Assembly: GCA_035293405.1 (NCBI GenBank)
Contig: DATDOE010000113.1
Span: 28,263-92,262 of the forward strand
Direction: 5' to 3'
Source of the DNA: Vicinamibacterales bacterium
GTDB taxonomy: Bacteria > Acidobacteriota > Vicinamibacteria > Vicinamibacterales > UBA2999
Length of the DNA: 64,000 nucleotides
Shown here: piece after piece, positions 153 to 61,632 of the stretch
Layout of the letters: each line of letters opens with the position of its first letter
How positions within the stretch are numbered: the stretch's first letter is position 1
Made by a program: the position numbers and the translations under genes
The notes under the pieces: generated by a model
Seen by the model: only the letters and a program-made list of their open reading frames with translations
Told to the model about the DNA's origin: nothing
Database searches by the model: none

Positions 153-1151
153 ATGGCTGTCAGCACCCGCACAAAGCTGTCTCTCACCCGGCGCCCGAGG
201 CGGCTCCGCCGCACCGAAGCCATTCGGTCGCTCGTGCGCGAGACGCGACTCACACCCGACTGCTTCATCTACCCGCTGTTCGTCTGTGAAGGCCAGGGCG
301 TACGACGCGCTATCGGATCGATGCCTGGCGTGTATCAGCTGTCGGTGGACGAGGCGGTCAGGGAAGCGGCAGCGGCACAGGCCGACGGCGTGCCGGCCGT
401 GATCCTCTTCGGCCTTCCCGACGAGAAGGACCTGGAAGGCTCCGGCGCCGCCGATCCCGATGCGCCCGTGCAGTCGGCGGTCCGCGCGCTCAAGCGTGAG
501 GTCCGGGACCTCGTCGTGATGACCGATGTCTGCCTGTGCGAGTACACCTCCCACGGCCACTGCGGCATCGTCGACGGCGACGAGATCGTGAACGATGCCA
601 CGGTCGCCCAGCTCGCGCAGGCGGCGTTGTCTCATGCGGTCGCCGGCGCCGATTTCGTGGCACCGTCCGACATGATGGACGGGCGCGTCGCCGCGATCCG
701 CAAGACGCTCGACGACAAGGGCTTCGAGAACACCGGCATCCTGTCCTACGCGGCGAAGTACTGCTCGGGGTTCTACGGTCCGTTTCGTGAGGCTGCCGAC
801 TCGACGCCACAGTTCGGCGATCGGCGCAGCCACCAGATGGATCCGGCCAACGTCGAGGAAGCGCTGCGCGCGGTGGAGATCGACCTGGCGGAAGGCGCGG
901 ACATCGTGATGGTGAAACCGGCCCTCCCCTATCTCGACGTGCTGGCGAAGGTCAAAGAGCGCTTCGGTCAGCCAACCGCCGCGTATCACGTCAGCGGGGA
1001 ATACGCGATGCTCAAGGCCGCCGCCGAGCGCGGCTGGCTGGACGAGCCGCGGGTGATGATGGAGTCGCTGATCGGCATCAAGCGCGCCGGCGCCGACATG
1101 ATCGTCACCTACTATGCGCGAGAGGCTGCTCGTCTCCTCTCGCGCGTGTAA
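153..1151 (+). CDS. hemB: porphobilinogen synthase (delta-aminolevulinate dehydratase)
   Basis: ORF 87..1151. The ATG at 153 gives the N-terminus '[20 protein letters not shown]'. Cys-rich metal site '[14 protein letters not shown]' and '[12 protein letters not shown]' Lys context. hemL lies next door. Confidence 0.95.
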
Positions 1152-1241
1152 TTCAAAATGCGAAATGCAAAATGCAGGACGCGAGGGCCTTTGACTTGTC
1201 CGCCTGCCGTTTGTTTGCATTTTGAATTTTGAATTTTGAAT
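1151..1241. repeat. heptamer-array inverted repeat, ATGCAAA flavour (4+4 units)
   Basis: Left arm: attcaaa atgcgaa atgcaaa atgcagg (1151-1178). Right arm: tttgcat tttgaat tttgaat tttgaat (1214-1241). G+C-rich 35-nt spacer. Confidence 0.9.
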
Positions 1242-1254
1242 TGACTTCCCGTCC

Positions 1255-2550
1255 ATGAAGAGACCCGTTAACTCCCAGAAGCTCTTCGCCCGCGCGAGCC
1301 AGGTGCTCCCCGGCGGCGTCGACAGCCCGGTTCGCGCATTTCAGGCCGTCGGCGGCTCGCCGCTGTTCATCAAGCGCGCGTCGGGCGCGGTCATCGACGA
1401 CGTGGACGGCAACCGGTTCATCGACTATGTGATGTCGTGGGGGCCGCTGATTCATGGGCACGCGCCGCGCTCGCTGGTCCAGGCCATCGCGGGAGCCGCC
1501 CGCCGCGGCACCAGCTTCGGTGCACCATCGCCGCTCGAGCACGAGCTCGCCGAGCGCGTGCGTGCGCTGGTGCCATCGATGGAGCGCCTTCGCTTCGTCA
1601 GCTCCGGCACCGAAGCTGCGATGAGCGCGATCCGCGTCGCCCGCGCGTTCACGCGCCGCGACCTGATCGTGAAGTTCGAGGGCTGCTACCACGGACACGC
1701 GGATGCGTTCCTGGTGAAAGCAGGGTCAGGCGCGATGACGCTCGGTGTGCCCACCAGCCCCGGTGTTCCGGCGGCCGTCGCCGCGGGCACGCTGCTCGCG
1801 CGATACAACGACCTTCGTTCTGTCGACGCGCTGATCGGCGAGCAGGCGGCGGCGATCGCCGCGATCATCGTCGAGCCCATCGCGGGCAACATCGGCGTCG
1901 TGCCGCCGGCCGACGGATTCCTCGCCGGACTGCGCGAGCGGTGTACGCGCCACGGCATCCTGCTGATCTTCGACGAGGTCATCTCAGGATTCCGCGCATC
2001 CGCGGGAGGCGCCCAGGCGGTCTTCGACGTGCGGCCGGATCTGACCTGCCTCGGGAAGATCATCGGCGGCGGCCTGCCGGTGGGCGCGTATGGGGGCCGC
2101 GCCGCGATCATGGACATGATCGCGCCCGTCGGGCCGGTGTATCAGGCCGGAACGCTGTCGGGCAACCCGGTGGCGATGACCGCCGGCCTGTGGGCGCTCA
2201 GGCGCCTGGTCCCGAAGCTGTATAAGGATCTGGCGTCACGCGGATCGTTGCTGGCCGCCGGTCTGGCGGCGGCGGCGCGCGACGCCGGCGTGGCCGTACA
2301 GGTCAATGCCTTCGGATCGATCCTGACGCCATTCTTCACCGCCGCGCCGGTGCGCGACTACCAATCGGCGCTGGCCGCCAATACGACGGCCTACGCGACG
2401 TTCTTCAGAGGCATGCTGAAGCGGGGGGTCTATCCCCCGCCGTCACAGTTTGAGGCCTGGTTTCTCTCGGCCGCGCACACCGATGCGCACATCAAGAAGA
2501 CCATCGCTGCCGCGCGCGCGGCGATGAAGGACGTGGCCAAGGAAATCTAG
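1255..2550 (+). CDS. hemL: glutamate-1-semialdehyde 2,1-aminomutase
   Basis: 431-aa class III aminotransferase. Motifs 'FDEVISGFR' and 'LGKIIGGGLPVGAYGG'. Adjacent to hemB. Confidence 0.95.
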   Translation: MKRPVNSQKLFARASQVLPGGVDSPVRAFQAVGGSPLFIKRASGAVIDDVDGNRFIDYVMSWGPLIHGHAPRSLVQAIAGAARRGTSFGAPSPLEHELAERVRALVPSMERLRFVSSGTEAAMSAIRVARAFTRRDLIVKFEGCYHGHADAFLVKAGSGAMTLGVPTSPGVPAAVAAGTLLARYNDLRSVDALIGEQAAAIAAIIVEPIAGNIGVVPPADGFLAGLRERCTRHGILLIFDEVISGFRASAGGAQAVFDVRPDLTCLGKIIGGGLPVGAYGGRAAIMDMIAPVGPVYQAGTLSGNPVAMTAGLWALRRLVPKLYKDLASRGSLLAAGLAAAARDAGVAVQVNAFGSILTPFFTAAPVRDYQSALAANTTAYATFFRGMLKRGVYPPPSQFEAWFLSAAHTDAHIKKTIAAARAAMKDVAKEI

Positions 2551-2561
2551 CCACGCGCGTC

Positions 2562-2605
2562 AACTCCCAACTCCCAAAAAGCCAACTCCCAAATGAATCG
2601 GGAGT
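2562..2605. repeat. heptamer array, AACTCCC/GGGAGTT flavour (single arm + short hairpin)
   Basis: aactccc aactccc aaaaagcc aactccc, then ...gggagt. The reverse complement matches 17726-17756 at 30 of 31 nt. Confidence 0.9.
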
Positions 2606-3559
2606 CTACCGCGGTTGAATCTGTACCGGCGAGTCGAAGCGGACGCGCAGCACCGAACCCTGCGGCAGCTCGACTTCCTTGCCTTCCGTCGCGGCGATGG
2701 TGCCGCCGCCACCGATCAGGATCCCGGCGAGGGCGCCCTTGAAGCCGCCGAGGATGCCGCCGATGATCGCGCCGACGCCCGCTCCAGTGGCGGTGCGGCC
2801 GGCCTCTCCCTTGATGCCCTCGCCCTCGATCGCCTGCGTCACCGTGGCGCGGATCGGATACGCACGTCCGTTCACCGTGACCTGATCGAAGCTGATCGTC
2901 AGCTTCGAGGTGCGATTGGTCCGGGTGCCCGCCTCGACGCCGGTGACGATGCCGCGGAGCACTGCGCCAGCGGGGATGACCACGCGATTGCTGACACTGA
3001 CGTCCACGAGCGTCGTGGCCTCGAAGCGATCCTCGACCTGCGCGGTGCCCGAGTTGATGCTGTTCTGGAGGCGCGCGTCGAGCTCGGTACCGGTGGGGAT
3101 CTCCACGGTTCCAGACGCGGCCGTCGTGGTCGCCGGCCGTGATGGTGCCGGTGTCGATGTCGATGTCGATGCGGGTGGGCGCGACGCGGCAGCAGACGAC
3201 GACACTCCGGAAGCCGGCGTGTTCGAGCTCGTCGACTCGCCTCTCGCGCGGGAGCGCACATCGTCGATGCGGTCGCGGACGTCGGCATACTCACTACGAG
3301 CGAGGGTCCGCTCCTTCCGCAGCTTCACTTTCAGGTACACCACTTCGTCGCGCAGATCATCGAGCTCGGCCTGGAGCTGACTGGCGCGCGCCACATCGCG
3401 GCTCCGGAGCTGCGTCACATCACGATCCGCCAGGTAGACGTTGTCCTGGAGCCGTTGAACGTCGGCCTGGGTCACGGTCGTGCTCTGCTGCGCCGCCACA
3501 GGCGCGGCAAGACCGGCGATGACCACGCCCGCCAGCACGATGCGATGAATCACTTTCAT
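2606..3559 (-). CDS. secreted protein of unknown function with coiled-coil, S/T/P-rich linker and C-terminal glycine-zipper
   Basis: Signal-peptide-like N-terminus 'MKVIHRIVLAGVVIAGLAAPVAAQ'. Low-complexity 'PASTSTSTPAPSRPATTTA'. C-terminal 'GVGAIIGGILGGFKGALAGILIGGGG'. No family recognised. Confidence 0.6.
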   Translation of the reverse strand: MKVIHRIVLAGVVIAGLAAPVAAQQSTTVTQADVQRLQDNVYLADRDVTQLRSRDVARASQLQAELDDLRDEVVYLKVKLRKERTLARSEYADVRDRIDDVRSRARGESTSSNTPASGVSSSAAASRPPASTSTSTPAPSRPATTTAASGTVEIPTGTELDARLQNSINSGTAQVEDRFEATTLVDVSVSNRVVIPAGAVLRGIVTGVEAGTRTNRTSKLTISFDQVTVNGRAYPIRATVTQAIEGEGIKGEAGRTATGAGVGAIIGGILGGFKGALAGILIGGGGTIAATEGKEVELPQGSVLRVRFDSPVQIQPR

Positions 3560-6882: not shown

Positions 6883-7671
6883 TCATTGCGCGCCGATGAC
6901 TGCCGGTGCGCCGATGCCGCCGTACCGCCGCTCGCGCTTCTGATAGGCGAGCACCGCTTCGATCAGGTGCCGGCGGCGGAAGTCCGGCCACAGCGTGTCG
7001 GTCACGTAGATCTCGGAGTACGCGATCTGCCAGAGCAGGTAGTTGCTGACCCGCATCTCGCCGCTCGTACGAATGAGCAGATCCGGATCCGGTTGGCCCG
7101 CCGTGTAGAGGAAGCTGGCGAAGCGCTGCTCGTCGAGATCCTCGGGACGGATGCCGGCCTCGATCGCGCGGCGTGCCGCATCCACGATCTCGGCGCGGCC
7201 GCCATAGTTGAGCGCGATGTTGAAGAGCATGCCGCGGCTCGCGCTGGTGCGCTCGATGGCGACGTTCAACTCGTCCTGAATATCAGGCGGCAGTTCCTCG
7301 ATGCGGCCGATCACGCGGAACCGGATGTCATTCCGCAGAAGGGTGTTCAACTCGGACCGCAGATAGCGCTTCAGCAGCCTCATCAGCGTGCCGACCTCGG
7401 TGGCCGGCCGCTTCCAGTTTTCGATGGAGAAGGCGTAAAGCGTCAGCACGCCAATGCCGAGGCGCGCGGCCGTCTCGACCGAGTCGCGCACGGCATCGAT
7501 GCCGGCCCGATGTCCCTCGACCCTGGGCAGGTGGCGCTGTGCCGCCCAGCGGCCGTTGCCGTCCATGATGATCGCGACGTGCGCCGGCAGCCGGTCGAAG
7601 TGAATCTCGCGGGCCAGCGTTTCATCGGCGTGCCCGGGCGGAATCCACGCCAGGAGATCCTCAAGCGGCAC
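6883..7671 (-). CDS. uppS: di-trans,poly-cis-undecaprenyl-diphosphate synthase
   Basis: 'HVAIIMDGNGRWA' and 'LLIRTSGEMRVSNYLLWQIAYSE' motifs of cis-prenyltransferases. Confidence 0.93.
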   Translation of the reverse strand: MPLEDLLAWIPPGHADETLAREIHFDRLPAHVAIIMDGNGRWAAQRHLPRVEGHRAGIDAVRDSVETAARLGIGVLTLYAFSIENWKRPATEVGTLMRLLKRYLRSELNTLLRNDIRFRVIGRIEELPPDIQDELNVAIERTSASRGMLFNIALNYGGRAEIVDAARRAIEAGIRPEDLDEQRFASFLYTAGQPDPDLLIRTSGEMRVSNYLLWQIAYSEIYVTDTLWPDFRRRHLIEAVLAYQKRERRYGGIGAPAVIGAQ

Positions 7672-17644: not shown

Positions 17645-17664
17645 GCTTTGGGTGCACTCATAAC

Positions 17665-17758
17665 AACTCCCAAATGCCCAACTCCCAACTCCCAACTCGG
17701 AATACCCAACTTCGTAGCGCCGATGTTTTGGGAGTTGGCTTTTTGGGAGTTGGTAGTT
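17665..17758. repeat. heptamer-array inverted repeat, GGGAGTT flavour
   Basis: The left arm has about 7 units of aactccc-like sequence (17665-17714). The right arm is 'gggagttggctttttgggagttggtagtt' (17730-17758). Confidence 0.9.
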
Positions 17759-20667: not shown

Positions 20668-20675
20668 GTGAAGCG

Positions 20676-27882: not shown

Positions 27883-27885
27883 GCT

Positions 27886-27966
27886 GGTTCTTGGTTCCTG
27901 GTTGGTGGTTCCTGGAAGATGGTTTGCGTATTTCCTCTACGAACCATGAACCACGAACCACGAACC
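27886..27966. repeat. heptamer-array inverted repeat, GGTTCST flavour
   Basis: Left: ggttctt ggttcct ggttggt ggttcct (27886-27913). Right: acgaacc atgaacc acgaacc acgaacc (27939-27966). Fills the divergent intergenic region. Confidence 0.9.
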
Positions 27967-27985
27967 AACAGGTATACTCACAAGA

Positions 27986-28795
27986 ATGCCCGTCGATGTC
28001 GAGGCAAAGGTCATTCGCAACACGCGCCTCTCCGCTGACTACAACGTCATCGCCCTCGCTGCTCCCGAGATTGCCGCCGCGGTTGCTCCTGGCCAATTCG
28101 TGATGGTCAAGCCGGGCCGCGGCAACGATCCGCTGCTGCGCCGCCCGTTCTCCGTGTTCGAGATCCTGCGCACCAACGGCGGCGTCGAGGGCCTGACACT
28201 GCTCAGCAAGCGCGTCGGCGTGACGACCCGCATGCTGCTTGACGCCGTCGAAGGCGACATCGTGTCCTGCCTGGGCCCATTGGGAAGACCGTTCGTGCCG
28301 GTCGATCCGCCAGAGGAGGCGTGGATAGTGGCGGGAGGCGTGGGGCTCGCTCCGTTTGCGACACTCGCCGAGGCGTTGCGCGAGCGCGGCACACCAACCA
28401 CCTTGTTCTATGGTGCACGGTCGGGACGCGAGCTCTTCTACCTCGATTGGTTTTCGTCCCGCGGTGTCCGGCTGGTACTGGCCACCGAGGATGGAAGCTC
28501 AGGTGAACGCGGGCGTATCACCGTGCCGCTCGAGCGCGCCCTGCAGCAGACAAAGGGCAGCGCCATGATCTACGCCTGCGGTCCTGAACCGATGCTCGAA
28601 GCCGTCGCGCACATCTCAGGCAAGTACGGCCGGCGATCGCAGGTCTCGGTCGAGCGCGTGATGGGATGCGGAATGGGCGGGTGCTATAGCTGCGTCATTC
28701 CGATGAAGGACACCGGGGGCGGCCATCACTACGTCCGTTCGTGCATCGCTGGCCCGGTCTTCAGCGGTACAGATCTGGTATGGGAACATGACTAA
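27986..28795 (+). CDS. pyrK: dihydroorotate dehydrogenase (NAD+) electron-transfer subunit
   Basis: FAD/NAD-binding fold ('RPFSV', 'GGVGLAPF') and a C-terminal 2Fe-2S Cys cluster 'CGMGGCYSCV...VRSCIAGPVF'. Confidence 0.92.
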   Translation: MPVDVEAKVIRNTRLSADYNVIALAAPEIAAAVAPGQFVMVKPGRGNDPLLRRPFSVFEILRTNGGVEGLTLLSKRVGVTTRMLLDAVEGDIVSCLGPLGRPFVPVDPPEEAWIVAGGVGLAPFATLAEALRERGTPTTLFYGARSGRELFYLDWFSSRGVRLVLATEDGSSGERGRITVPLERALQQTKGSAMIYACGPEPMLEAVAHISGKYGRRSQVSVERVMGCGMGGCYSCVIPMKDTGGGHHYVRSCIAGPVFSGTDLVWEHD

Positions 28796-28936
28796 ACTCC
28801 CAACTCCCAATCCCGCTTCGCGCGCGAGCCAACTCCCAAGAAAGACGCAAGAAGGACAATTGGGAATCGGGAATTGGGAGTTGGCCCGGGTTCGGGTTGG
28901 GAGTTGGGAGTTAGATGGGGTTGGGAGTTGGGAATT
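28795..28936. repeat. heptamer-array inverted repeat, GGGAGTT/GGGAATT flavour
   Basis: Left: aactccc aactccc aatcccg ... aactccc. The long right arm is gggaatc gggaatt gggagtt ... gggagtt gggagtt ... gggagtt gggaatt (28862-28936). Confidence 0.9.
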
Positions 28937-28939
28937 GAC

Positions 28940-41528: not shown

Positions 41529-42848
41529 ATGCGCGGGCTGTGGTCCACTCTCGGCATGGTCGTCGTGCTGGCCGGCCTGGTCGGCTACATCTACTTCGTC
41601 GATTCGAAAGGCGAACCAGGTACGCCCGAGGCCAAGGAGAAGGTTTTCGGCGGCACTCTCTCGACGACCGACATCGAAGAGGTGCAGATCACGCTGGCGA
41701 GCGGCGAGAACAGCCGTCTCCAGAAGATCGACGGCACCTGGCGACTCGTGGCGCCCTCTCCGGCGCCCGCCGACGAGAGCGAGTTGACGTCGATCACGAG
41801 CGGGCTCGCGTCCCTCGAGATGCAGCGCGTGGTCGCCGAGAACGCGAGCGACATGAAGCAGTACGGTCTCGACCCGCCCCGCGTCGACGTGTCCTTCAGG
41901 AGCAAAGGGCAGAAAGAGCTGCGACGAATCGCACTCGGCACGAAGACGCCGACCAGCGGAGACATGTACGCGCGCATTCCCGATCAGCAACGTGTGTTCC
42001 TGGTCTCGTCCTTCCTCGATACGACCCTCAACAAGACGCCGTTCGCGCTGCGCGACAAGACGATCCTGAAATTCGATCGCGAGAAGGTCGATGGCCTCGA
42101 GCTCGCTGCCGGGTCGACGGTCATTCAGCTGGCCAAGCGCGGGCAGGACTGGACGATCGTCAAACCGTTTGCCGCACGCGCGGAGTATGCGGCCGTCGAA
42201 GGCTCGCTCGAGCGACTCGGCTCCGCGCAGATGGTCGGGATCGTCGAGCCAGAAGCCACCGACCTCGCGAAGTACGGGCTGGACAAGCCTGCCGTGACGA
42301 TGACTGTGGCGACGGGCAGCTCGCGCGCGTCGTTGACGCTCGGCAAGACCGACAATGCGCTGGTATTCGCGAAGGACTCGTCGCGACCGATGGTGTTCAC
42401 CGTCGCGCCGACGCTGCGAGAGGACGTCTTCAAGCTGGGCTCGGAGTTCCGCCGCAAGGATCTGTTCGACGGGCGTTCGTTTACGGCCAATCGCGTCGAG
42501 CTCCGGCGCGGCAGTGAAACGATCGTGCTGGACAAGAGCAAGGGCAAGGACGGGAAAGACGTCTGGCGCAACGGGGCCGGCAAGGATGTCGAGGCCATGA
42601 AGGCCGACGACCTGCTGACGAAGCTGACCGGCCTTCGCGCCTCGTCATTCGAAGACCAGCCGCACGCATCGCTCAAGATGCCCGCGCTCGTCGTCACTCT
42701 GCGGTTCAACGACAACCGGATGGAGACGGTGACCTTCGGCCGTGCGGGAACCGATGCGTTCGCCAGCCGCGCGGACGAAACCGGATCGGCGACGATCGAA
42801 GGACCCGGGCTCGACGAGGCGATGAAGGCACTCGATGCCGTAAAGTAA
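41529..42848 (+). CDS. DUF4340-like protein
   Basis: N-terminal TM 'LWSTLGMVVVLAGLVGYIYF' followed by repeated beta-rich modules. This is the position normally held by DUF4340 after GldG-like genes. Confidence 0.7.
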   Translation: MRGLWSTLGMVVVLAGLVGYIYFVDSKGEPGTPEAKEKVFGGTLSTTDIEEVQITLASGENSRLQKIDGTWRLVAPSPAPADESELTSITSGLASLEMQRVVAENASDMKQYGLDPPRVDVSFRSKGQKELRRIALGTKTPTSGDMYARIPDQQRVFLVSSFLDTTLNKTPFALRDKTILKFDREKVDGLELAAGSTVIQLAKRGQDWTIVKPFAARAEYAAVEGSLERLGSAQMVGIVEPEATDLAKYGLDKPAVTMTVATGSSRASLTLGKTDNALVFAKDSSRPMVFTVAPTLREDVFKLGSEFRRKDLFDGRSFTANRVELRRGSETIVLDKSKGKDGKDVWRNGAGKDVEAMKADDLLTKLTGLRASSFEDQPHASLKMPALVVTLRFNDNRMETVTFGRAGTDAFASRADETGSATIEGPGLDEAMKALDAVK

Positions 42849-42946
42849 TGCAAGATTCAAAATGCAAAATGCAAAACGTCAACGTGCAGGCGTCGCGTCG
42901 CCGCGATGGCATGCCGTGTTTGCATTTTGCATTTTGCATTTCGCAT
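42848..42946. repeat. heptamer-array inverted repeat, ATGCAAA flavour (4+4 units)
   Basis: Left: atgcaag attcaaa atgcaaa atgcaaa (42848-42875). Right: tttgcat x3, then ttcgcat (42919-42946). 43-nt G+C-rich spacer. Confidence 0.9.
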
Positions 42947-44403
42947 TACTGAGTTGCGCTAAGGGACCTCCGCGCGTTCCCTCTCCCTCGGCGCGCGGGC
43001 CTTCAGAAGCACGCGCGGATCCTGTCACGCAACTTCAGCGACACATCCTGAGCGCAACGCGAATGGCGGGCGTGACCCGCGCCGCGTGGGGCATCGTGGT
43101 GCAGTCGCTCGATCGGAACGAGCGGCTCTTCGAGTTGAATCCACGAACGCTGCTGGTGCCGGCGTCGTCGGCCAAGCTCGTGGGCGTGGCAACCGCGGCC
43201 GAGGCGGTCGGATGGGACTACCGCTACGTGACGACACTCCTGGCCGCGGGCCCGGTCACAGACGGTGTCCTTCATGGAGATCTCATTGCCGTCGGCTCTG
43301 GCGATCCGTCGATCGGTGGACGGGGCGGTGACGATCTCTCCAGTTGGGTTGAGGCGCTCAGGTCGGCGGGCATCCAGAGGATCGAGGGCCGCATCATCGG
43401 CGACGACGATGCGCTCGAGGAGCCACGACCGCAGCTCTCGTGGGCATGGGACGACCTGGGGTACACGACTGGGGTGCTGTTCGGGGCGCTGAACGTTGCC
43501 GAGAACCGCACGGTGGCTACGATTGCACCCGGCGCGTCCGAGGGCACGCCGGCGACACTCCTCGCGGAGGCGCGGGCGGCCTATCGCGGATTGACGAGTC
43601 GCGTGCTGACCGGCCCGCGAGGCTCGACGCAACTCCTGTGGCCGGAACAGCGGCCCGGCGAGCCGGCCCTCACACTGGCGGGCTCGATCCCGACTGGCGC
43701 CCCGCCGGCTCAGATCGATATCTCGGTCGGCAATCCCACACTCTGGTTTGCGAGCGTGTTGCGGGACCGGCTCGTCCGCGATGGCATCGTGGTCACGGGC
43801 GACGCCTTTGACATCGATGATGTCGCGCCAACACCGGATCGTGCGAGCGCGACGGTGCTCTTCACGCACCGCTCACGCCCGCTGTCGGAGATCGTGCGAG
43901 CCCTGCTCAAGGACAGCATCAACCTGTACGGCGAGGCTGTCATGCGGCTCAATGCCCCACGCGACACGCTCGCGACCAACGATGCCGCGCTCGAGGGCCT
44001 GGGGAAACGGCTGGAATCGTGGGGCATTCCAACCGACAGCATCCAACTCGTCGATGGGTCCGGCCTGTCCCGCCGCGATGCGATCTCTCCGGACGCGCTT
44101 CTGCTGGTGCTTCGGCGGATGCACGATCCCACCGGCAAGTCGCCTTTCATGACCGGCCTGCCGATCGCCGGCGTTGACGGTTCGCTCAGCGGGCGGATGA
44201 ACGGCACGCCCGCGGACGCCAACGTCCGCGCGAAAACCGGCACCATGTCCAATATCCGCTCCCTCGCCGGCTACGCGACAACACGCGACGGGGAGCGGCT
44301 GGCGTTCGTGATCATGGTGAACAATTTCGAGGGGACCGGGCCCAGCGCCAACACCGCAATCGATGCGATCGCCGTGCGCCTTGCCTCATTTAGTCGAGAG
44401 TAG
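42862..44403 (+). CDS. dacB: D-alanyl-D-alanine carboxypeptidase/endopeptidase (PBP4, S13)
   Basis: 'LVPASSAKL' (SxxK), 'DGSGLSR' (SxN-like), 'KTGTM' (KTG). The N-terminus is encoded by the heptamer repeat. An alternative GTG start is at 42916. Confidence 0.85.
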   Translation: MQNAKRQRAGVASPRWHAVFAFCILHFALLSCAKGPPRVPSPSARGPSEARADPVTQLQRHILSATRMAGVTRAAWGIVVQSLDRNERLFELNPRTLLVPASSAKLVGVATAAEAVGWDYRYVTTLLAAGPVTDGVLHGDLIAVGSGDPSIGGRGGDDLSSWVEALRSAGIQRIEGRIIGDDDALEEPRPQLSWAWDDLGYTTGVLFGALNVAENRTVATIAPGASEGTPATLLAEARAAYRGLTSRVLTGPRGSTQLLWPEQRPGEPALTLAGSIPTGAPPAQIDISVGNPTLWFASVLRDRLVRDGIVVTGDAFDIDDVAPTPDRASATVLFTHRSRPLSEIVRALLKDSINLYGEAVMRLNAPRDTLATNDAALEGLGKRLESWGIPTDSIQLVDGSGLSRRDAISPDALLLVLRRMHDPTGKSPFMTGLPIAGVDGSLSGRMNGTPADANVRAKTGTMSNIRSLAGYATTRDGERLAFVIMVNNFEGTGPSANTAIDAIAVRLASFSRE

Positions 44404-46213: not shown

Positions 46214-46908
46214 GGATGTCGCGCGGGATCGACGATGCCGACTTCGGCGAAGCCAGCCGCGCGCAGGACGCAGCTGTCGCAGCGGCCACATGCCGCTCCG
46301 CCGGGCCCTGGATCGTAGCAACTGTGTGTCAGGCCGTAGTCGAGACCGAGATCGATGCCGCGCTTGATGATGTCGGCCTTGGTCATCATCTGCAGCGGCG
46401 CGTGAATCCGAAACCGTTCGCCCTGCACGCCTCTAGCCGTCGCCAGTGAGGCCAGCTCCTCGAAGGCCCGAATGAACTCCGGCCGGCAGTCCGGGTATCC
46501 CGAGTAATCCAGCGCGTTCACGCCGATGACGATGTCGTGAGCGCCGAGCACCTCGGCCCAGCCGAGTGCCAGCGCCAGGAAGATGGTGTTTCTGGCAGGA
46601 ACGTACGTCGACGGGATCTCCGAGTCCCGAGTCCCGAGTCCCGAGTCCCGAGCCATGGGCCGGTCCTTCGGCACCGGCGCGTCCGTCGTCAGAGAAGAGC
46701 CGCCAAACGCCGACAGGTCGACGTCGAGCTCGATGTGCCGCGCGGTGCCCAGCCGCTTCGCAAGGACACGGGCGGCCTCGATTTCAGCCGCATGCCGTTG
46801 CCCATAGCGGATGGTCAGGGCGAAGAGACGGAATCCCTCCTCGCGCACGATGGCCGCGGCCGTGTAGGAATCGAGCCCTCCGCTCAATAGGACCACTGCG
46901 TCAGACAT
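46210..46908 (-). CDS. queC: 7-cyano-7-deazaguanine synthase
   Basis: PP-loop 'VLLSGGLDS', '[10 protein letters not shown]', and the Zn site '[21 protein letters not shown]'. Contains an in-frame heptamer array. Confidence 0.92.
46621..46648. repeat. four perfect tandem heptamers (CGAGTCC) inside queC coding sequence
   Basis: cgagtcc x4 followed by cgagcca. It is translated in frame as '[12 protein letters not shown]'. Confidence 0.9.
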
Positions 46909-47623: not shown

Positions 47624-47626
47624 TTC

Positions 47627-47709
47627 CGGGATTCGGGATCCGGGACTCGGGATCCGGCGGATTCGGTCGTTCACATTTCGAATCCCGAATCCCGAATCCC
47701 GAGTCCCGG
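47627..47709. repeat. heptamer-array inverted repeat, CGGGATT flavour
   Basis: Left: cgggatt cgggatc cgggact cgggatc cggcggatt cgg. Right: cgaatcc x3, then cgagtcc (47679-47706). Loop of about 12 nt. Confidence 0.9.
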
Positions 47710-47722
47710 CTATTGTACCGGC

Positions 47723-49978: not shown

Positions 49979-50008
49979 AGTGCTATCCGCAGCCTGATGC
50001 TAGCATTC

Positions 50009-50029
50009 CGGGATTCGGGATTCGGGATT
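50009..50029. repeat. three tandem heptamers (CGGGATT), single arm
   Basis: cgggatt cgggatt cgggatt, between nth and the M28 peptidase gene. Confidence 0.85.
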
Positions 50030-50043
50030 CGCCAGAGCGAAAC

Positions 50044-51426: not shown

Positions 51427-51644
51427 CGGTCACTCCGGATCCCGGTGCACCGTCTCCATCGAAAACGCCGGTAGACACACCGCGATGTATTCTGCGCCGC
51501 CCAGAGGCGTGCTGTAGCGCACCCATTCTCCAGCCGCGGTCAACTACTGCCTGACCGGCGACCTGCGTATTCCTCGATGCGCTTCGGAGGCGTACCCGCA
51601 GCCTGAACAATGGTCGGAGTTTGAATAAGTCGGGGCATTCTTCT

Positions 51645-51722
51645 GGTTCCTGGTTCGTGGTTCGTGGTTGAAAAGTCGGGAGTTGGGAGTTGGGAGTTGG
51701 CTCGGAGATCGAGTTGGGAGTT
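51645..51722. repeat. two adjacent heptamer arrays of different flavour (GGTTCGT then GGGAGTT)
   Basis: ggttcct ggttcgt ggttcgt ggttgaa, then gggagtt x3, ggctcggagatcga, gttgggagtt. Confidence 0.9.
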
Positions 51723-51724
51723 GA

Positions 51725-52570: not shown

Positions 52571-52673
52571 GGCTTTGGGCCTTGGGGAGTTGGCGAAGCC
52601 GCGCCGAAGCGCGCTGGACTCATGCGCGAAGGCGGGGGAGTTGGCTAGGAGATCTGGTTGGGAGTTGGGAGTT
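52571..52673. repeat. heptamer arrays, GGGAGTT flavour, flanking a G+C-rich hairpin
   Basis: 'ggctttg ggccttg gggagtt ggcgaag', then GCGCGC-cgaa-GCGCGC, then 'gggagttggctaggagatctggttgggagttgggagtt'. About 30 nt are shared with 51692-51722. Confidence 0.85.
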
Positions 52674-53618: not shown

Positions 53619-53622
53619 ACCA

Positions 53623-53657
53623 ACTTTCTACTTTACACTTCGCACTTTGCACTTGTT
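53623..53657. repeat. five tandem heptamers (ACTTNNN), single arm
   Basis: actttct actttac acttcgc actttgc acttgtt. Fills the gap between the small Cys protein gene and the dehydrogenase gene. Confidence 0.85.
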
Positions 53658-54148: not shown

Positions 54149-54156
54149 GGTCCTCT

Positions 54157-54205
54157 GGGCCGCCTAAAGGCGGCCCCTACGTGACGACTGAAGGCGGCTC
54201 CTACG
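54157..54205. repeat. REP-like hairpin + half copy inside BMC operon
   Basis: GGGCCGCC-taaa-GGCGGCCC ctacg, then tgaaggcggctcctacg. Confidence 0.85.
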
Positions 54206-54467
54206 CGACATCGATCTCGTCGACGATGCCGACGATGCCGGCGTCGGTTGGCACTTCCGTCGGGTAGAACGGAAACGAGGCTTCCTTGCCGCGCACGAAA
54301 AACACCGTTTCACCCACACCCGCTCCAACCGCGTCGACGGCGACCAGCGTTCGGCCGACGGCGCGGCCGTCAGGCGCCAGCGGCTGCAGCACCATCAGCT
54401 TGAGGCCGTGCAGATTGTCGTCCTTGATGGTGACGACGACGTCGCCGATGACCCTGGCCAGTTGCAC
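54201..54467 (-). CDS. BMC-P (EutN/CcmL) shell vertex protein, paralogue 2
   Basis: The GTG at 54467 gives 'VQLARVIGDVVVTIKDDNLHGLKLMVLQP...AVDAVGAG...DAGIVGIVD'. Confidence 0.85.
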   Translation of the reverse strand: MQLARVIGDVVVTIKDDNLHGLKLMVLQPLAPDGRAVGRTLVAVDAVGAGVGETVFFVRGKEASFPFYPTEVPTDAGIVGIVDEIDVA

Positions 54468-54471
54468 GAGA

Positions 54472-54747
54472 TCAGTCGCCCGCGGCGACCTCCACGTGGT
54501 CGACGATCCCGACAATGGCGGCATCGACCGGACAATCTTTCAGACCCGACGCCATGCGCGCCGAGCTGCCACTCACAATCAACACGGTCTCGCCAACGCC
54601 GGCGTCGACGGTGTCGATGGCCACGAGATAGTTGCCTTCGGCCTTGCCGTGGGGATCCATGGGGCGGGCGACGAGCAGCTTGCTGCTGACCAGACGCGGG
54701 TCCTTCCGCGTAGCGACAACCGTCCCGACGATGCGGGCCAGGATCAT
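54472..54747 (-). CDS. BMC-P (EutN/CcmL) shell vertex protein, paralogue 1
   Basis: 'MILARIVGTVVATRKDPRLVSSKLLVARP...AIDTVDAG...VDAAIVGIVD'. Confidence 0.9.
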   Translation of the reverse strand: MILARIVGTVVATRKDPRLVSSKLLVARPMDPHGKAEGNYLVAIDTVDAGVGETVLIVSGSSARMASGLKDCPVDAAIVGIVDHVEVAAGD

Positions 54748-54762
54748 GCGGGGTACGACAGG

Positions 54763-55059
54763 TTATGCCTTTATGCCGGCGGTAGACTTGCCAATCGGGA
54801 GCGCGTCCTCGAGGTTGGCATGAGGCCGTGGGATGACGTGCACGGACACCAGCTCGCCCACGCGGCGAGCCGCCGCCGCGCCAGCATCAGTGGCGGCCTT
54901 GACCGCGGCCACGTCGCCACGGACGATCGCCGTCACGTACCCGGCGCCGATCTTCTCCCAGCCGACCAGCGTGACCTTCGCGGCTTTGACCATGGCGTCG
55001 GCCGCTTCGATCATCGCGACCAGGCCCTTGGTCTCCACCATTCCGAGCGCCTCTCCCAT
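54763..55059 (-). CDS. BMC-H (PduA/CcmK-type hexamer) shell protein
   Basis: '[54 protein letters not shown]'. Confidence 0.92.
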
Positions 55060-55078
55060 TCGCTGTCTCCACTAACAC

Positions 55079-55151
55079 GGCGGGTCCACAAACCAGGACC
55101 CGCCCTACGTAACTTGCGTTCGTAGGCCGGGTCTTGTTCTTCAGACCCGGC
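55079..55151. repeat. pair of REP-like hairpins inside BMC operon
   Basis: GGCGGGTCC-acaaacca-GGACCCGCC ctacg ... cgtag GCCGGGTCT-tgttcttc-AGACCCGGC. These are the same two hairpin types as 35540-35626, in swapped order. Confidence 0.85.
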
Positions 55152-55157
55152 GGGTCC

Positions 55158-56018
55158 TCAATCCCGAAGGTTCTTCACGGCGTCGGTGATGAGCGCCGTG
55201 AGCTCGCCGTATGTTAGCCGAATTTCCCCGTCTCTGCTCGCCTGTCGCAGCGCACTCGAGACGTCGGGCACCAGCCGCGCGGTGCTCGACTCCGGCGCTT
55301 CGAGCACCTGGCACAGCACCTGATCGTCGGACGCCGGATCAGAGGGATCGGCACAGAGCGGCGCCGGCGACGCGATGCCGTACATGCCGCGAAGCCCCTG
55401 CAATCGCCCCACTTCCTCACGCGAAATCAGGTTCTCGCCTCCGAGCAGCCGGGCCACGAGACTGATTTTGGCGAAGTGCTCGATCGTTTCCATCTTGTAG
55501 TACGCCGACATGACCGTTCGGCAGCAGGTCACCGCGCCATGGTTGGCGAGCAGCAGACCGTCATGCGCCTTGATGTACTTGCGGACGGCGGCGGGCAGTT
55601 CGGCCGTGGACGGCGTGCCGTATTCCGCGATCGGGATGCTGCCGAGCGTGGTGACAACCTCGGCGAGCACGGCTCTCGTGAGCGGAATCCCGGCCACCGC
55701 GAACCCGGTGGCGTTCGGCGGATGCGCATGGACGACGGCGTTGACGTCCGGCCGATTGCTGTAGATCTCGAGGTGCATCGGCAGTTCGGAGGACGGATCC
55801 CGATCGCCCGACACCTTCTTCCCCTGGTAGTCCACGACGACCATCATGTCGGGCGTCATGAACCCCTTGGACACGCTCTTCGGCGTGGTCAGGATCCGCG
55901 TGTCGTCGAGCCGCGCGCTGATGTTGCCGTCATTGGAGGCGACGAACCCGCGCGCGTACATGCGCCGCCCGGCTTCGACGATCTCGGCACGCGTCTGCTC
56001 TTCGAGGCGTGTGCTCAT
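55158..56018 (-). CDS. class II (FucA/RhaD-type) aldolase with ~70-aa C-terminal extension
   Basis: The ATG at 56018 gives 'MSTRLEEQ'. 'SNDGNISAR' and 'VHAHPPNATGFA' (Zn His). The extension ends 'EIRLTYGELTALITDAVKNLRD'. Confidence 0.88.
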   Translation of the reverse strand: MSTRLEEQTRAEIVEAGRRMYARGFVASNDGNISARLDDTRILTTPKSVSKGFMTPDMMVVVDYQGKKVSGDRDPSSELPMHLEIYSNRPDVNAVVHAHPPNATGFAVAGIPLTRAVLAEVVTTLGSIPIAEYGTPSTAELPAAVRKYIKAHDGLLLANHGAVTCCRTVMSAYYKMETIEHFAKISLVARLLGGENLISREEVGRLQGLRGMYGIASPAPLCADPSDPASDDQVLCQVLEAPESSTARLVPDVSSALRQASRDGEIRLTYGELTALITDAVKNLRD

Positions 56019-56269
56019 CAACGGTTCTTTCGAAACTGATCCCGGCACCGATCCGAACAGAAATAGTGGGTAACGCTGCCGGCGCGCAGTCCGAGGGATT
56101 CGTGCGGGGACACCCAGGTGCCACAGACCGGATCGCGCACGAGCTTCACGGCCGCTTTCGACCGCTTGCTCGGCAGCCCGCCAAACGATTCGATGATCCC
56201 GTCAACGAGTCGCCAGAACGCCCATGCGACCATGAGCAGCAGCAGCGCAATGAGGACGAGCCGTGTCAC
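56018..56269 (-). CDS. membrane-anchored YHS/TRASH-domain protein
   Basis: GTG start overlapping the upstream stop (GTGA). TM 'LVLIALLLLMVAWAFW'. 'DPVCGTWVSPHE...HYFCSDRCRDQF'. Confidence 0.7.
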   Translation of the reverse strand: MTRLVLIALLLLMVAWAFWRLVDGIIESFGGLPSKRSKAAVKLVRDPVCGTWVSPHESLGLRAGSVTHYFCSDRCRDQFRKNR

Positions 56270-56889
56270 TGATTGCTCGTCGCGGCGCCACCACCGGCGT
56301 GAGCCGCCGCGATCCCTTCAAGCGCGCGTCGCGCCGCCTGGCCTTCGGGACTGTCAGGCGCGAGCGTCACCACCTTCTCCCACTCAGCCGCGGCGGCACG
56401 CAGGTCCTGCTTCCCGAAGGCGAGGACGATCCCTTTGTTCAGCAGCGTCTTCGTGTGATTCGGGCTGATCGCCAGCGAGTGCTCGAACTGCTTGAGCGCC
56501 TCGTCGGCTTTGTTGCTGTAGTACAGGCTCACCCCAAGATCGGTACTGGCGTCGGCGTTCTTCGGGTCGATCTGAACCGCCCGCGTGTACCACTGAATCG
56601 CGTCATCCCACTGCTCGGCATCGAAGTAGGTGTTGCCGAGCTGAATGACGGCGTCGAGGTTCTTCGGGTCGCTCTTGAGGATCGTCGTCAGCGCCTGCAC
56701 GCGGCCCTGGTCGAGCGCGGGCGCCTGTCGTGCGGTGTTACCGGCACCGGCGGCCTGTCCGTCGGTCGCAGCGGCCTGCGCAGCGGGTGCCGGGGCCTGG
56801 CGGCGAGCCTGCTGGGTGCCGATCACCCAGCCCAGGATCACGCCGAAACACATACCGGCGATGACGTACGCGATGGAGTCTGATTTCAT
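56266..56889 (-). CDS. membrane-anchored TPR-repeat protein
   Basis: N-terminal TM 'IAYVIAGMCFGVILGWVIG', an Ala/Gln-rich linker, and 3-4 TPR units ('LGNTYFDAEQWDDAIQWYTRAVQIDPKN'). Confidence 0.75.
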   Translation of the reverse strand: MKSDSIAYVIAGMCFGVILGWVIGTQQARRQAPAPAAQAAATDGQAAGAGNTARQAPALDQGRVQALTTILKSDPKNLDAVIQLGNTYFDAEQWDDAIQWYTRAVQIDPKNADASTDLGVSLYYSNKADEALKQFEHSLAISPNHTKTLLNKGIVLAFGKQDLRAAAAEWEKVVTLAPDSPEGQAARRALEGIAAAHAGGGAATSNQ

Positions 56890-59801: not shown

Positions 59802-60619
59802 CAGGCAACCGAGCTCCGCGCCTCGGGTCGCCGCGTCTGTGCCCGTCCTCGTACGCCGAGCAGCGCTTGCAGCCGCACCTGGAGCGCGCTGGCGTCGAGC
59901 CCCCGCTCCAGGTCGCCCCCAATCGCCAGCGAGATCGATCCGGTCTCCTCTGACACGACGATCGCCACCGCGTCGTTCTCTTCCGTCAGTCCGAGCGCGG
60001 CACGATGCCGCGTACCCAGATCGCGGCTCACGCGCGGGCTCACGGACAAGGGAAGAAAGCAGGCCGCGGCGGCGATGCGGTCACCCTGCACGATGACGGC
60101 GCCGTCATGGAGAGGCGAGCCGGTGTGAAAAATGCTGGCCAGCAGGTCGTAGGTCACCATCGCATCGAGCGGTATCCCACCCTCGATATAGTTGCGAAGC
60201 CCGATCTGCCGCTCGATCGCGATGATCGCGCCGATGCGGCGCGCGGACAGCGTGGTGGCGGCGATGACCAGCTCCTCGAGGGTCTCATCGTCGCTCGACG
60301 CCCGCTCGAAGTACTTGAAGAACTGTGCGCGGCCGAAGTGCGCCAGGGCGCGGCGGATGTCAGCCTGAAACAGCACGATGATCGCAAACACGACGTAGGT
60401 CGCGAGGTTGCGGATCACCCAGTTGACCGTCTCCAACCCGAGCCACTGCGAGACGAAGAAGAGTCCGATCAGGAAGCCGCCGCTGAGCGCCATCTGCATC
60501 GCGCGTGTGCCGCGGATGAGGAGCAGCAGCTCGTAGACGAGAATCGAGACGAGCGCGATGTCGAGCAGGTCCCACCACGACACCGCGGGCCGACGCAGCA
60601 GTTCCGAGAGGTATTCCAT
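59801..60619 (-). CDS. cdaA: diadenylate cyclase
   Basis: Three N-terminal TM helices. DAC domain 'GAIIAIER', 'PLHDGAVIV', 'GTRHRAALGLTEE'. Confidence 0.9.
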   Translation of the reverse strand: MEYLSELLRRPAVSWWDLLDIALVSILVYELLLLIRGTRAMQMALSGGFLIGLFFVSQWLGLETVNWVIRNLATYVVFAIIVLFQADIRRALAHFGRAQFFKYFERASSDDETLEELVIAATTLSARRIGAIIAIERQIGLRNYIEGGIPLDAMVTYDLLASIFHTGSPLHDGAVIVQGDRIAAAACFLPLSVSPRVSRDLGTRHRAALGLTEENDAVAIVVSEETGSISLAIGGDLERGLDASALQVRLQALLGVRGRAQTRRPEARSSVA

Positions 60620-60628
60620 GCAGCGGGC

Positions 60629-61510
60629 TCACTCGACCGATGCGCGATGATACTTCCGAATCTCATCGGCGACGCGCACGACCTCCGCCATCTCCCGGAC
60701 GGCGTGCACGCGGACGATATGAGCGCCGGACAGGACCGCCGCCGTGACGGCAGCCGTGGTCGGCCAGTCTCGCGCGGCAGCCTGTACGTCGCGGCGCGCG
60801 AGAGGGCGGGTCAGGAAAGTTTTTCGCGACGGCCCGACGACCACAGGGCGTCCAAGCTCGCTGAACTGCTGAAGGCGCGCGAGGACCTCGAAGCTGTGGG
60901 GCGCCTCCTTGGCGAACCCGAGCCCAGGGTCGACGAGCATGAGCTCCTTGGCGATACCGGCGCCGCCGGCAAATGCCATGCTCTCGCGGAGCTCGTCGAG
61001 CACTTCATCCACCACCTCCGAGTAGACCGCCTGCCGATACATGTCGCGCGAGCGTCCACGGGTGTGCATCAGCACGATCGGGACGCCGTGCCTGGCGACG
61101 ACCGCCGCGAGGTCCGGCTCGTATCTGAGGCCGCTGACGTCGTTGACGAGCGACGCGCCAGACTTGAGCGCGGCGTCGGCCGTGGAGGCTTTGTAGGTGT
61201 CGATGGATATTGGCACCTGCACACGCGCGGCCAGTGCTTCAATCACCGGCAGCACACGGCGGAGCTCTTCAGCCGCGGGGGTCGGCTGCGCTCCGGGCCT
61301 GGTTGACTCGCCGCCGATGTCGAGCAGATCGGCGCCCTCGTCCACCATCCTCACCCCGGCATCGATCGCCTGCCGCGCATCGAGCAGCTCGCCGCCGTCG
61401 GAGAACGAGTCGGGCGTGACGTTGATGATCCCCATCACCAACGTGCGATCTCCCAACGCGAGCGACCGGCCGCCAGGGAGCGACAGGACAAAGCGACGAC
61501 GGGGGAACAC
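60629..61510 (-). CDS. folP: dihydropteroate synthase
   Basis: GTG start. 'MGIINVTPDSFSDGG', 'DIGGESTRPG', 'VNDVSG'. Confidence 0.92.
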   Translation of the reverse strand: MFPRRRFVLSLPGGRSLALGDRTLVMGIINVTPDSFSDGGELLDARQAIDAGVRMVDEGADLLDIGGESTRPGAQPTPAAEELRRVLPVIEALAARVQVPISIDTYKASTADAALKSGASLVNDVSGLRYEPDLAAVVARHGVPIVLMHTRGRSRDMYRQAVYSEVVDEVLDELRESMAFAGGAGIAKELMLVDPGLGFAKEAPHSFEVLARLQQFSELGRPVVVGPSRKTFLTRPLARRDVQAAARDWPTTAAVTAAVLSGAHIVRVHAVREMAEVVRVADEIRKYHRASVE

Positions 61511-61528
61511 GAAGGAACACTACACCAA

Positions 61529-61632
61529 GTGCAAAGTGCAAAGTGGAAAGTGCAAAGTCCGTGAAAAGTCAAAAGTGCGAAGCAAGTGAGTACTTCTCAC
61601 TTACTTCGCACTTCACACTTCGTACTTCAAAC
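61529..61632. repeat. heptamer-array inverted repeat, GTGCAAA/TTCGCAC flavour
   Basis: Left: gtgcaaa gtgcaaa gtggaaa gtgcaaa (gtcc) gtgaaaa gtcaaaa gtgcgaa gcaagtgag. Loop: tact. Right: tctcac ttac ttcgcac ttcacac ttcgtac ttcaaac. Confidence 0.9.

Follow-up and report, generated by a model that had tools for sequence, protein, structure and literature searches.

Palindromic heptanucleotide arrays densely fill gene junctions in a Vicinamibacterales genome and its close relatives

The 64,000-nt stretch of DNA analysed here (positions 28,263 to 92,262 of contig DATDOE010000113.1, assembly GCA_035293405.1, from a Vicinamibacterales bacterium, an acidobacterium of soil and groundwater; hereafter the window) carries a dispersed family of tandem arrays with 7-nt units, in which an array and its reverse complement commonly lie on either side of a spacer. 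These arrays are a new, very dense and many-flavoured Vicinamibacterales occurrence of heptanucleotide repeats that have already been described elsewhere, and not a new kind of element. They are probably best explained as palindromic heptanucleotide microsatellites that start from small palindromes at the ends of genes, change by 7 nt at a time, stay self-complementary as DNA and are tolerated where folding is harmless. Supporting this explanation are the fixed period of 7 with a free unit sequence, the palindromy of the arms, turnover at gene junctions, the lack of a sense-strand signature, in-frame copies, lineage-specific activity and precedent in other bacteria.

A scan for arrays of at least three units with at most two mismatches, shorter periods being excluded, recovered 18 period-7 arrays at 14 loci of the window, compared with a mean of 0.47 and a maximum of 2 in 30 dinucleotide-preserving shuffles; periods 8-12 yielded no arrays in the same scan. 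Tandem Repeats Finder reported period-7 arrays at every locus of an earlier list made from the sequence alone. The sequence-only reading, which had itself proposed a comparison with shuffled sequence, was right that all 14 loci exist where it placed them, that the period is fixed at 7 in the window and that the family is dispersed, non-random and made up mostly of inverted pairs able to form hairpins. It was also right that the arrays are AT-richer than the genome. The five flavours that it distinguished reduce to three unit families, GGGANTN, TKCAAAA/AARTGCA and TGGTTCN. Runs of at least two GGGANTN units number 11 in the window and 43 in the window and its relatives together, and several GGGANTN arrays hold four or more GGG tracts.

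Placement was judged against calls from a codon-usage gene caller, Pfam matches and the Joint Genome Institute (JGI) calls on two contigs of metagenome 3300002124, which are 100% identical to the window and provide gene calls and no additional variation. Seventeen of the 18 arrays are intergenic, and the density of exact heptamers in intergenic DNA is 70 to 380 times that in coding DNA. About 34 spacers in the window measure at least 40 bp; arrays occupy 10 of these, and three further loci are weaker. As the sequence-only reading had noted, the array begins 0-2 nt from the stop codon of nine genes (hemB, the 317-amino-acid open reading frame (ORF) at 2606-3559, pyrK, the DUF4340 gene, hxlR, the 2-hydroxyacid dehydrogenase gene, a 73-amino-acid ORF, glmM and ftsH). 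The gap after pyrC is 7-12 nt. Its account of position needs amending elsewhere: a second arm usually stops 3-19 nt short of the next start codon, the loci it gave as 27886, 47627 and 50009 (27884, 47625 and 50006 in our scan) lie in divergent spacers and adjoin start codons, and the array at 46621 is real yet sits inside queC and in frame. Pfam did not confirm its labels 'gly-zipper' and 'small BMC protein' for two of the flanking genes.

Units are not the only sequence that recurs. At unrelated loci, and across lineages, arrays of the TGCAAAA family are bounded by GTAAT...ATTAC and those of the GGGAGTT family by GTCAAC...GTTGAC. The segments 2567-2593 and 17727-17753, in loci 15 kb apart, match exactly over one inverted 27-mer, which takes in the bases AAAAAGCC that belong to no unit, and a 31-nt composite with three substitutions is common to loci 51692 and 52636 (52636-52666). 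The central spacers of different window loci are mutually unrelated and often hold a GC hairpin.

The claim that every locus folds into a long imperfect hairpin stood for eight loci (1149, 17645, 27883, 28793, 42846, 47624, 57647 and 61511), each compared with 200 shuffles of which none was as stable (z -4.0 to -6.6). It did not stand at 2561, 51641 and 53623, which gave no significant hairpin when folded, and the hairpin at 52583 is weak; loci 46618 and 50006 are single arrays without a full reverse-complement arm and lay outside the folded set. Selection on the transcribed RNA would favour folding of the sense strand, because a G-U pair becomes C-A on the opposite strand. Across 63 co-directional junctions no such sense-RNA signature appeared in minimum free energy (MFE) or G-U counts: mean MFE was -49.54 for sense and -49.52 for antisense, with 33 junctions more stable in sense and 30 in antisense (Wilcoxon p 0.63), and G-U pairs made up 244 of 2540 sense and 212 of 2504 antisense pairs. 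Palindromy is therefore strand-symmetric. Arm order is biased at co-directional junctions: in 38 cases against 12, which are not independent of each other, the A-rich arm precedes the T-rich one, and this order is the geometry of bidirectional terminators. Counts from a consensus terminator and promoter scan did not exceed those of shuffles (7 terminator-like sites in 20 kb against 9.9); the sole clear one within an array element, apart from weak ones at 57708, lies at 61614-61572 between ftsH and folP, where a 19-bp stem is followed by a T-rich tail.

Related loci were collected by a metagenome scan with the tetratricopeptide repeat (TPR) protein encoded at 56266-56889, which yielded 80 loci of 61-97% identity spanning 510 kb. 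Period 7 accounts for 94 arrays in these loci, and periods 8, 9 and 10 for 15, 2 and 0. The window and all loci of the clade, pooled (721 kb), give 126 arrays and 55 canonical units, and 68% of the 126 arrays have a reverse-complement partner within 200 nt, compared with 10% in a complement-only control. A second scan based on HemL, whose closest match (84% amino-acid identity) belongs to the Vicinamibacterales (Acidobacteriota), retrieved mostly other phyla because the protein is too conserved, and served as a control set. Arrays number 2.8 per 10 kb in the window; close relatives reach 1.5-2.1 and other phyla (1.05 Mb) 0.24, and 92 kb of more distant Vicinamibacterales held no arrays. None was seen either in 21 kb of OZ244976, a 7.9-Mb Vicinamibacterales chromosome. 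The other phyla also favour period 7, with 25 arrays against 6, 5, 3 and 1 at periods 8-11. A low density elsewhere and a high density here imply a phenomenon that is general yet strongly amplified in this clade. Relative L103 carries a period-8 inverted pair at its glmM-pdxJ junction (7412-7599), composed of (GGAAAAGT)x5-6 and (ACTTTTCC)x4, and together with the 15 period-8 arrays of the clade this indicates that the 7-nt rule is strong and not absolute. In L099, an array of about 17 units (735-930) with a complementary arm downstream changes its unit midway from GGCCCAA to ATGCCCA, which is unit replacement inside one array.

Orthologous junctions differ in the presence, absence and unit number of the element, a comparison that the sequence-only reading had put forward. 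The glmM-pdxJ junction was recovered from 47 relatives. In about 27 of these no element is present and the genes abut or overlap (TAATG, TGATG, TAAATG, TAATTACATCGTCATG); about 11 carry a TGCA[A/G]AA / TT[T/C]TGCA hairpin, six carry AACTCCC/GGGAGTT or AAATCCC/GGGATTT, and one carries the period-8 pair described above. Several junctions, among them those of L104, L106 and L155, look like eroded relics. Wherever a junction is filled, the stop codon adjoins or contains the beginning of the element, and a few nucleotides separate its end from the ATG. The empty site TAA|TTAC of L084 corresponds to TAA-[element]-TTAC in L099 and L101, and no target-site duplication was seen between filled and empty glmM-pdxJ sites. 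The arrays thus touch stop and start codons because the element is the entire spacer, and without it the two genes abut or overlap.

The two arms at glmM-pdxJ also co-vary. TGCAAAA is matched by TTTTGCA in the window, L105 and L122, and TGCAGAA by TTCTGCA in L092, L099, L101, L109 and L124. An alignment of the arms' outer 18 nt gives GC in five sequences and AU in three for pair 8-33, and AU in three, GC in three and GU in two for pair 15-26, none being unpaired. The arms scored 0.181 for covariation and the shuffles 0.122, with 9 of 500 shuffles reaching the observed score, and two-sided changes occupied 10 cells against 5.1 in shuffles (5 of 500 reached 10). The TGC/TTC unit polymorphism shows no compensation between arms. 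A mirrored order of TGC and TTC variants, sought as a sign of copying from arm to arm, was not found.

Of 19 relatives, 17 have arrays between ftsH and folP, and the units of these arrays drift (GGTCAAA, GGGCAAA, AAGTTCA, AAGTGCA, AACTCAA). They often flank a conserved mid-spacer GC hairpin, ACGCCCACC-N4-GGTGGGCGT followed by TGT..GCGTAC (L084, L088, L091, L094, L100, L109), whose site corresponds to 61511-61632 of the window; this hairpin may act as a conserved terminator or as a small RNA element. The JGI call places the folP start at 61435. All relatives, however, conserve the protein sequence of the 25 codons upstream, which open with the GTG at 61510, so that folP probably begins there. 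Between hemB and hemL, an element of matching flavour but reduced length is present in L001, the closest genome relative, and L002-L004 have none. Unit number differs between orthologous elements at hemB-hemL, glmM-pdxJ, ftsH-folP and in the queC loop.

The single intragenic array of the window lies in an ORF on the minus strand (46210-46896) that matches QueC over its full length (Pfam 2e-69). Its (CGGGACT)x4 array encodes an additional loop of 8 amino acids, which appears as a 9-residue gap against PDB 2pg3; ten related loci have the empty loop PIDPNEIP. In P0002/L164 (90% identity) and P0007/L163 both arms are in frame and add 29 residues, in the form of (CGGGACT)x7-8, a 7-nt loop and (CGGATCC/CGGGTCC)x4-5, with predicted stems of -77 and -89 kcal/mol, and in L121 this position holds a G-rich array of another flavour. 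A terminator or regulator site inside queC is implausible, and the simplest reading of the insert is a tolerated expansion. A coding-frame copy with both arms translated argues that much of the phenomenon arises from mutation and tolerance, not from regulation. Six QueC homologues (P0011, P0029, P0045, P0062, P0094, P0100) carry one or two copies of PKPSGDGG-like repeats at the C-terminus, to judge from the sequence a second variable repeat-encoded region of this family.

Heptanucleotide repeats have been known since the work on short tandemly repeated repetitive (STRR) sequences of cyanobacteria. The classic STRR1-3 units of heterocystous cyanobacteria are CCCCAGT, TTGGTCA and CAACAGT, and no consensus unit found here is a rotation or complement of these. 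Nostoc has GGGGAYT arrays as well as TTTTGAA/TTCAAAA arrays near start codons. As in the window, several heptamer flavours coexist in one cyanobacterial genome, at intergenic sites by starts and between cistrons, and TTCAAAA is also a window unit; however, cyanobacterial arrays are often far longer (up to 26 or more units) and mostly direct, and inverted pairing round a unique spacer is no hallmark of them. Rickettsia palindromic elements (RPEs), repetitive extragenic palindromes and bacterial interspersed mosaic elements (REP/BIME) and foldback transposons are all hairpin-forming palindromes at gene ends; RPEs can lie in frame within genes, and the arms of foldback elements are short tandem repeats round a variable centre. 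These groups have a conserved full-length consensus, and REP and foldback elements have dedicated transposases, whereas the copies described here have only units and short termini in common. REP/BIME elements are imperfect palindromes of 20-40 nt that have a conserved GTAG or CGTC head and go with a RAYT transposase in the genome; the termini seen here read GTAAT and GTCAAC. CRISPR arrays, in which direct repeats of about 23-50 bp alternate with unique spacers of similar length, were ruled out, in agreement with the sequence-only reading, since the 7-bp units are contiguous and a single unique spacer lies between two inverted arms. An Rfam search of the kind it had suggested returned no matches over the whole window at the gathering threshold, and no tRNA or tmRNA was found in a scan of the window.

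Another published class is that of the long simple sequence repeats (LSSRs). Heptanucleotides are the most abundant long simple repeats in most bacterial genomes, and slippage tied to the footprint of the polymerase has been suggested for their excess (Mrazek 2007, as summarised in PMC4679880 and PMC4692102). As summarised there, these LSSRs share with the present arrays an excess of 7-nt units over other sizes, a non-coding bias and a sporadic phylogenetic distribution; the summaries do not include inverted pairing, junction-level turnover or in-frame copies, which are seen here. Window arrays show an excess of 7-nt tandem units, a non-coding bias and a copy number that varies among relatives, the three features by which heptanucleotide LSSRs are recognised. 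In Xanthomonas, about 185 (GGGANTN)n arrays are found in each of two genomes, 89-93% of them intergenic and 7-11% intragenic (Rehm et al. 2015, PMC4692102), at a mean of 28 nt from the nearer neighbouring ORF, which is described there as the 5' one, with 70-75 convergent inverted pairs and variation between species (PMC4692102). The two occurrences have in common GGGANTN units, commonly about four per array, an intergenic position near an ORF and inverted pairs able to form stem-loops, but the window has at least two families besides GGGANTN, which is a single one of the clade's 55 units, and the host here belongs to the Acidobacteriota. The operational definition of the Xanthomonas arrays, at least one GGGAATC per array, fits a single array of the window (28862), the other GGGANTN arrays being built of GGGAGTT, GGGATTC, GGGACTC or GGGAATT. 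A Xanthomonas genome is roughly 5 Mb, and the density of about 2-3 arrays per 10 kb here is about 4-7 times that of about 185 per genome of that size.

In Geobacter metallireducens, families of 3-5 tandem hepta- or octanucleotide units form pairs, the members of which lie on opposite strands and a variable distance apart (Aklujkar et al. 2009, PMC2700814); one of these families, with four heptanucleotide repeats, is found at 49 sites, both intergenic and intragenic (PMC2700814). Unlike the present arrays, these were read as binding sites of a global regulator or as RNA elements, and some are associated with insertion sequences (PMC2700814); their units (GGACCGG, MTYCTGA, GTTGCTYN) also differ from those found here. 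Marine Beggiatoaceae have TAACTGA arrays of 2-6 copies a few nucleotides from start codons (MacGregor 2015, PMC4679880). These are likewise abundant, intergenic and flanked by genes without a functional pattern, but consist of a single unit sequence, are almost always direct (one inverted case) and form no hairpin (PMC4679880). The parS sites of plasmid pSM19035, where omega (ParB) dimers read four or more contiguous 7-bp heptads in direct or inverted orientation (PMC9499535), belong to a single type of plasmid locus, follow one consensus and have a known binder; they lack a unique spacer between arms and do not form a many-flavoured set spread over a genome. No literature on such repeats in Acidobacteria or Vicinamibacteria was found. 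The sequence-only reading could place the loci in no known repeat family and had named a match to a described family as evidence against itself; at the level of kind there is such a match, as their anatomy is that of the published heptanucleotide repeats of Xanthomonas, Nostoc and Geobacter and of the LSSRs.

Under the microsatellite explanation, arrays would lengthen and shorten by replication slippage in steps of 7 (and 14) nt, and would nucleate on small prior palindromes such as terminator-like hairpins, the TAATTA of stop/start junctions or the GATCCCG in queC. Complementarity between the arms would be kept at the DNA level, either by selection against inserts that do not fold or by intramolecular template switching. 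A palindromic insert could be tolerated at a coupled junction because folding re-joins the stop codon and the next start at the base of the stem, and this restored proximity would explain why arrays begin at the stop and end just before the next start; in queC the insert would be tolerated as a harmless protein loop. Transcribed arrays would form long imperfect stem-loops, with possible incidental effects on termination, on the stability of the mRNA or on translational coupling, without being sequence-specific regulatory sites.

Several observations weigh against this explanation. A few unit families recur at many loci and across phyla (GGGANTN in Xanthomonas and Nostoc, TTCAAAA in Nostoc), where slippage from random seeds fails; different loci have family-specific termini in common (GTAAT...ATTAC, GTCAAC...GTTGAC); and the exact 27-mer with its non-unit bases stands at two distant loci. 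The near-universal retention at ftsH-folP and the 38:12 bias toward an A-rich first arm hint at selection, for example for a geometry like that of bidirectional terminators, and slippage leaves the 7-nt step itself unexplained. An active, lineage-specific and sequence-independent '7-nt ruler', either a foldback-like palindrome that copies itself or a dedicated enzyme or binding protein that adds or reads 7-nt units, would account for the conserved termini, the 27-mer at two loci, the on/off distribution among lineages and the same units across phyla, as slippage alone does not; we give it a small probability.

It might be supposed instead that the elements are selected RNA stem-loops, acting as (bidirectional) terminators, 3'-end stabilisers, RNase III sites or devices of translational coupling, and that the heptads merely build the stems. 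We regard this as unlikely, although with a real chance of being correct. The tight spacing from stop (0-2 nt) and start (3-19 nt), the co-varying arms, the arrays kept in 17 of 19 ftsH-folP junctions, the GC hairpin found in many spacers and conserved there in six relatives, the 38 to 12 arm order and the 19-bp stem with its T-rich tail at 61614-61572 are all consistent with it, and in the GGGAGTT family a Shine-Dalgarno-like GGAG/GGGA motif, placed 5-7 nt ahead of ATG or GTG, comes from the last unit (GGGAATTGAC-ATG / GGGAGTTGAC-GTG). However, sense and antisense fold equally well without a sense excess of G-U pairs, terminator-like sites are no commoner than in shuffles over the 20 kb scanned, and the TGC/TTC polymorphism is uncompensated between arms. 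In addition, over half of the relatives have no element at glmM-pdxJ, and the same elements lie in divergent promoter spacers and in the queC frame, where a terminator would be harmful. A G-quadruplex or i-motif function, as put forward for Xanthomonas and Nostoc, is open only to the GGGANTN family, whose 11 matching window arrays include several with four or more GGG tracts; such oligonucleotides form G-quadruplexes in vitro, and no regulatory role was found for them (Rehm et al., PMC4692102). Arrays of TKCAAAA, AAGTGCA and TGGTTCN and most of the 55 units have no G-tracts and yet share the same anatomy and genomic behaviour, which rules out the G-quadruplex as the single unifying explanation, and where G-tracts do exist the complementary arm would compete through a duplex stem. 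The probability left to this reading by analogy is close to nil.

The arrays could also be binding sites for one or more proteins that read a 7-nt register and form a global regulatory or nucleoid-organising network; possible models are, on DNA, the ribbon-helix-helix ParB/omega of pSM19035, and on RNA, proteins of the cold-shock, S1 or CsrA type. A strict 7-nt register, conserved and degenerate positions within each family (GGGANTN, TKCARAA, TGGTTCN), arrays often of four units and the recurrence of the same units in Nostoc and Xanthomonas would fit such a reader, as would the precedent of ParB dimers on at least four heptads (PMC9499535) and the heptamer-binding proteins proposed by the authors of the Nostoc and Beggiatoaceae studies. 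A sequence-specific reader would nevertheless have to track all of the 55 canonical units of the clade, with at least three families within 64 kb and units swapped between lineages at one junction; some copies are coding and in frame, and no candidate gene was identified, so that we think this very unlikely. Mobility is similarly improbable to our minds. Non-autonomous elements resembling foldback or miniature inverted-repeat transposable elements (MITEs), with heptamer inverted termini and a preference for stop/start junctions and occasionally a reading frame, would leave family-specific termini at unrelated loci in different lineages, the clean difference between L084 and L099 or L101, the 27-mer of 2567/17727, the composite of 51692/52636, different flavours at one junction and the in-frame queC insertion. 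Against this, spacers are unrelated between loci of one genome, arms are unequal in length between and within elements, single-arm and direct arrays exist, orthologs differ by unit number and erosion rather than all-or-none, and the window has no linked transposase. Despite inverted arms and family termini, the arrays do not fit the definition of a MITE or foldback element, whose copies share internal sequence and have target-site duplications: the spacers are unrelated and no such duplication was seen at glmM-pdxJ.

The clade constitutes an unusually rich natural experiment, with about 2-3 arrays per 10 kb, dozens of flavours and sister lineages that have none, and the same junction can be seen empty, filled, eroded and re-flavoured in many metagenomic relatives. 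Arrays of this kind mislead start-codon calls and create variable protein loops, and they would serve as high-resolution strain markers for an abundant and poorly cultured group of soil bacteria. The short-read JGI contig L081 ends at 47783, 74 nt past the arrays at 47625-47709, and the repeats thus probably fragment short-read assemblies. The individual loci are collected in Table 1.

Table 1. Heptanucleotide array loci of the window, with their arms and folding statistics
Locus	Coordinates	Strand	Arms and units	Folding
hemB-hemL junction (hemL ATG at 1255)	1149..1244		1149-1177 TAA-TTCAAAA-TGCGAAA-TGCAAAA; 35-nt GC-rich spacer; 1213-1244 TTTGCAT/TTTGAAT x4	MFE -33.2, z -4.0
hemL / ORF 2606-3559, convergent spacer	2561..2604		AACTCCC units 2561-2577 and 2583-2593; one inverted CGGGAG	z -0.9
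pyrC (amidohydrolase/dihydroorotase) / phosphoribosyltransferase junction	17664..17757	both genes -	17664-17711 AACTCCC-type; 17726-17757 GGGAGTT-type	z -4.1
Phosphodiesterase (-) / pyrK (+), divergent spacer	27884..27970 (fills 87/103 bp)		27884-27915 TGGTTCN x4; 27939-27970 NGAACCA x4	z -5.1
pyrK-pyrD junction	28793..28937		28793-28814 + 28827-28838 TAA-ACTCCC-AACTCCC; long second arm 28858-28937 GGGAATT/GGGAGTT, ends GGGAATTGAC-ATG	MFE -67.6, z -5.1
DUF4340 gene / S13 D-Ala-D-Ala carboxypeptidase gene junction	42846..42950		TAA-TGCAAGA-TTCAAAA-TGCAAAA x2; 37-nt GC hairpin spacer; TTTGCAT x3-TTCGCAT-TAC	MFE -49.4, z -5.9
queC, intragenic	46618..46655	-	(CGGGACT) x4, in frame	
queE (-) / DUF72 gene (+), divergent spacer	47625..47709		47625-47657 CGGGATT/CGGGATC/CGGGACT; 47675-47709 GAATCCC x3-GAGTCCC	z -4.05
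HhH-GPD glycosylase (-) / M28 peptidase (+), divergent spacer	50006..50034	+	single (CGGGATT) x3.3, 12 nt before ATG	
M28 peptidase / hxlR, convergent spacer	51641..51724	+	two flavours in tandem, (TGGTTCN) x4, then (GGGAGTT) x3 and more; no inverted partner; ends 2 nt from hxlR stop	z -1.5
Glyoxalase / 2-hydroxyacid dehydrogenase, convergent spacer	52583..52673	+	ends at dehydrogenase stop	z -2.8
73-amino-acid ORF / dehydrogenase junction	53623..53655	-	single degenerate AAGTGCA-type array, 2 nt past stop	z -1.2
glmM-pdxJ junction	57655..57785	genes -	TAA-TTCAAAA-TGCAAAA-TTCAAAA x2; 67-nt spacer with own hairpin; TTTGCAT x3-TTTGAAT, then AGAGGTTC-ATG	MFE -55.3, z -6.6
ftsH-folP junction	61524..61635	genes -	AAGTGCA-type arm and complement, from ftsH stop codon	z -5.5

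The element at the DUF4340 junction has an ortholog in relative L164, and at locus 52583 the GGGAGTT units on the two sides of the central GC hairpin are direct repeats and not inverted ones. The queE/DUF72 element is found also in L112, L121 and L163. Beside its queE-side array, GGTACAATA at 47710-47722 contains a TACAAT box resembling a -10 element (47711-47716, minus strand) that is kept in the same three relatives; from its position to the right of the array, the whole hairpin would fall within the 5' leader of queE-queC.

Two other features of the window were recorded. A low-GC island at 20582-25416 (57-61% against 65%) has no heptamer arrays and was skipped by the codon-usage caller; its ORFs match an Eco57I-type/N6 DNA methylase, an N6_N4 methylase and a phospholipase D-like (PLD-like) nuclease domain, and on these matches it looks like a horizontally acquired restriction-modification system. 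A bacterial microcompartment (BMC) cluster at 53658-56018 comprises one BMC-H gene, three EutN/CcmL genes and one class II aldolase gene, adjoins the 2-hydroxyacid dehydrogenase gene and appears to be conserved in the relatives that were fetched.

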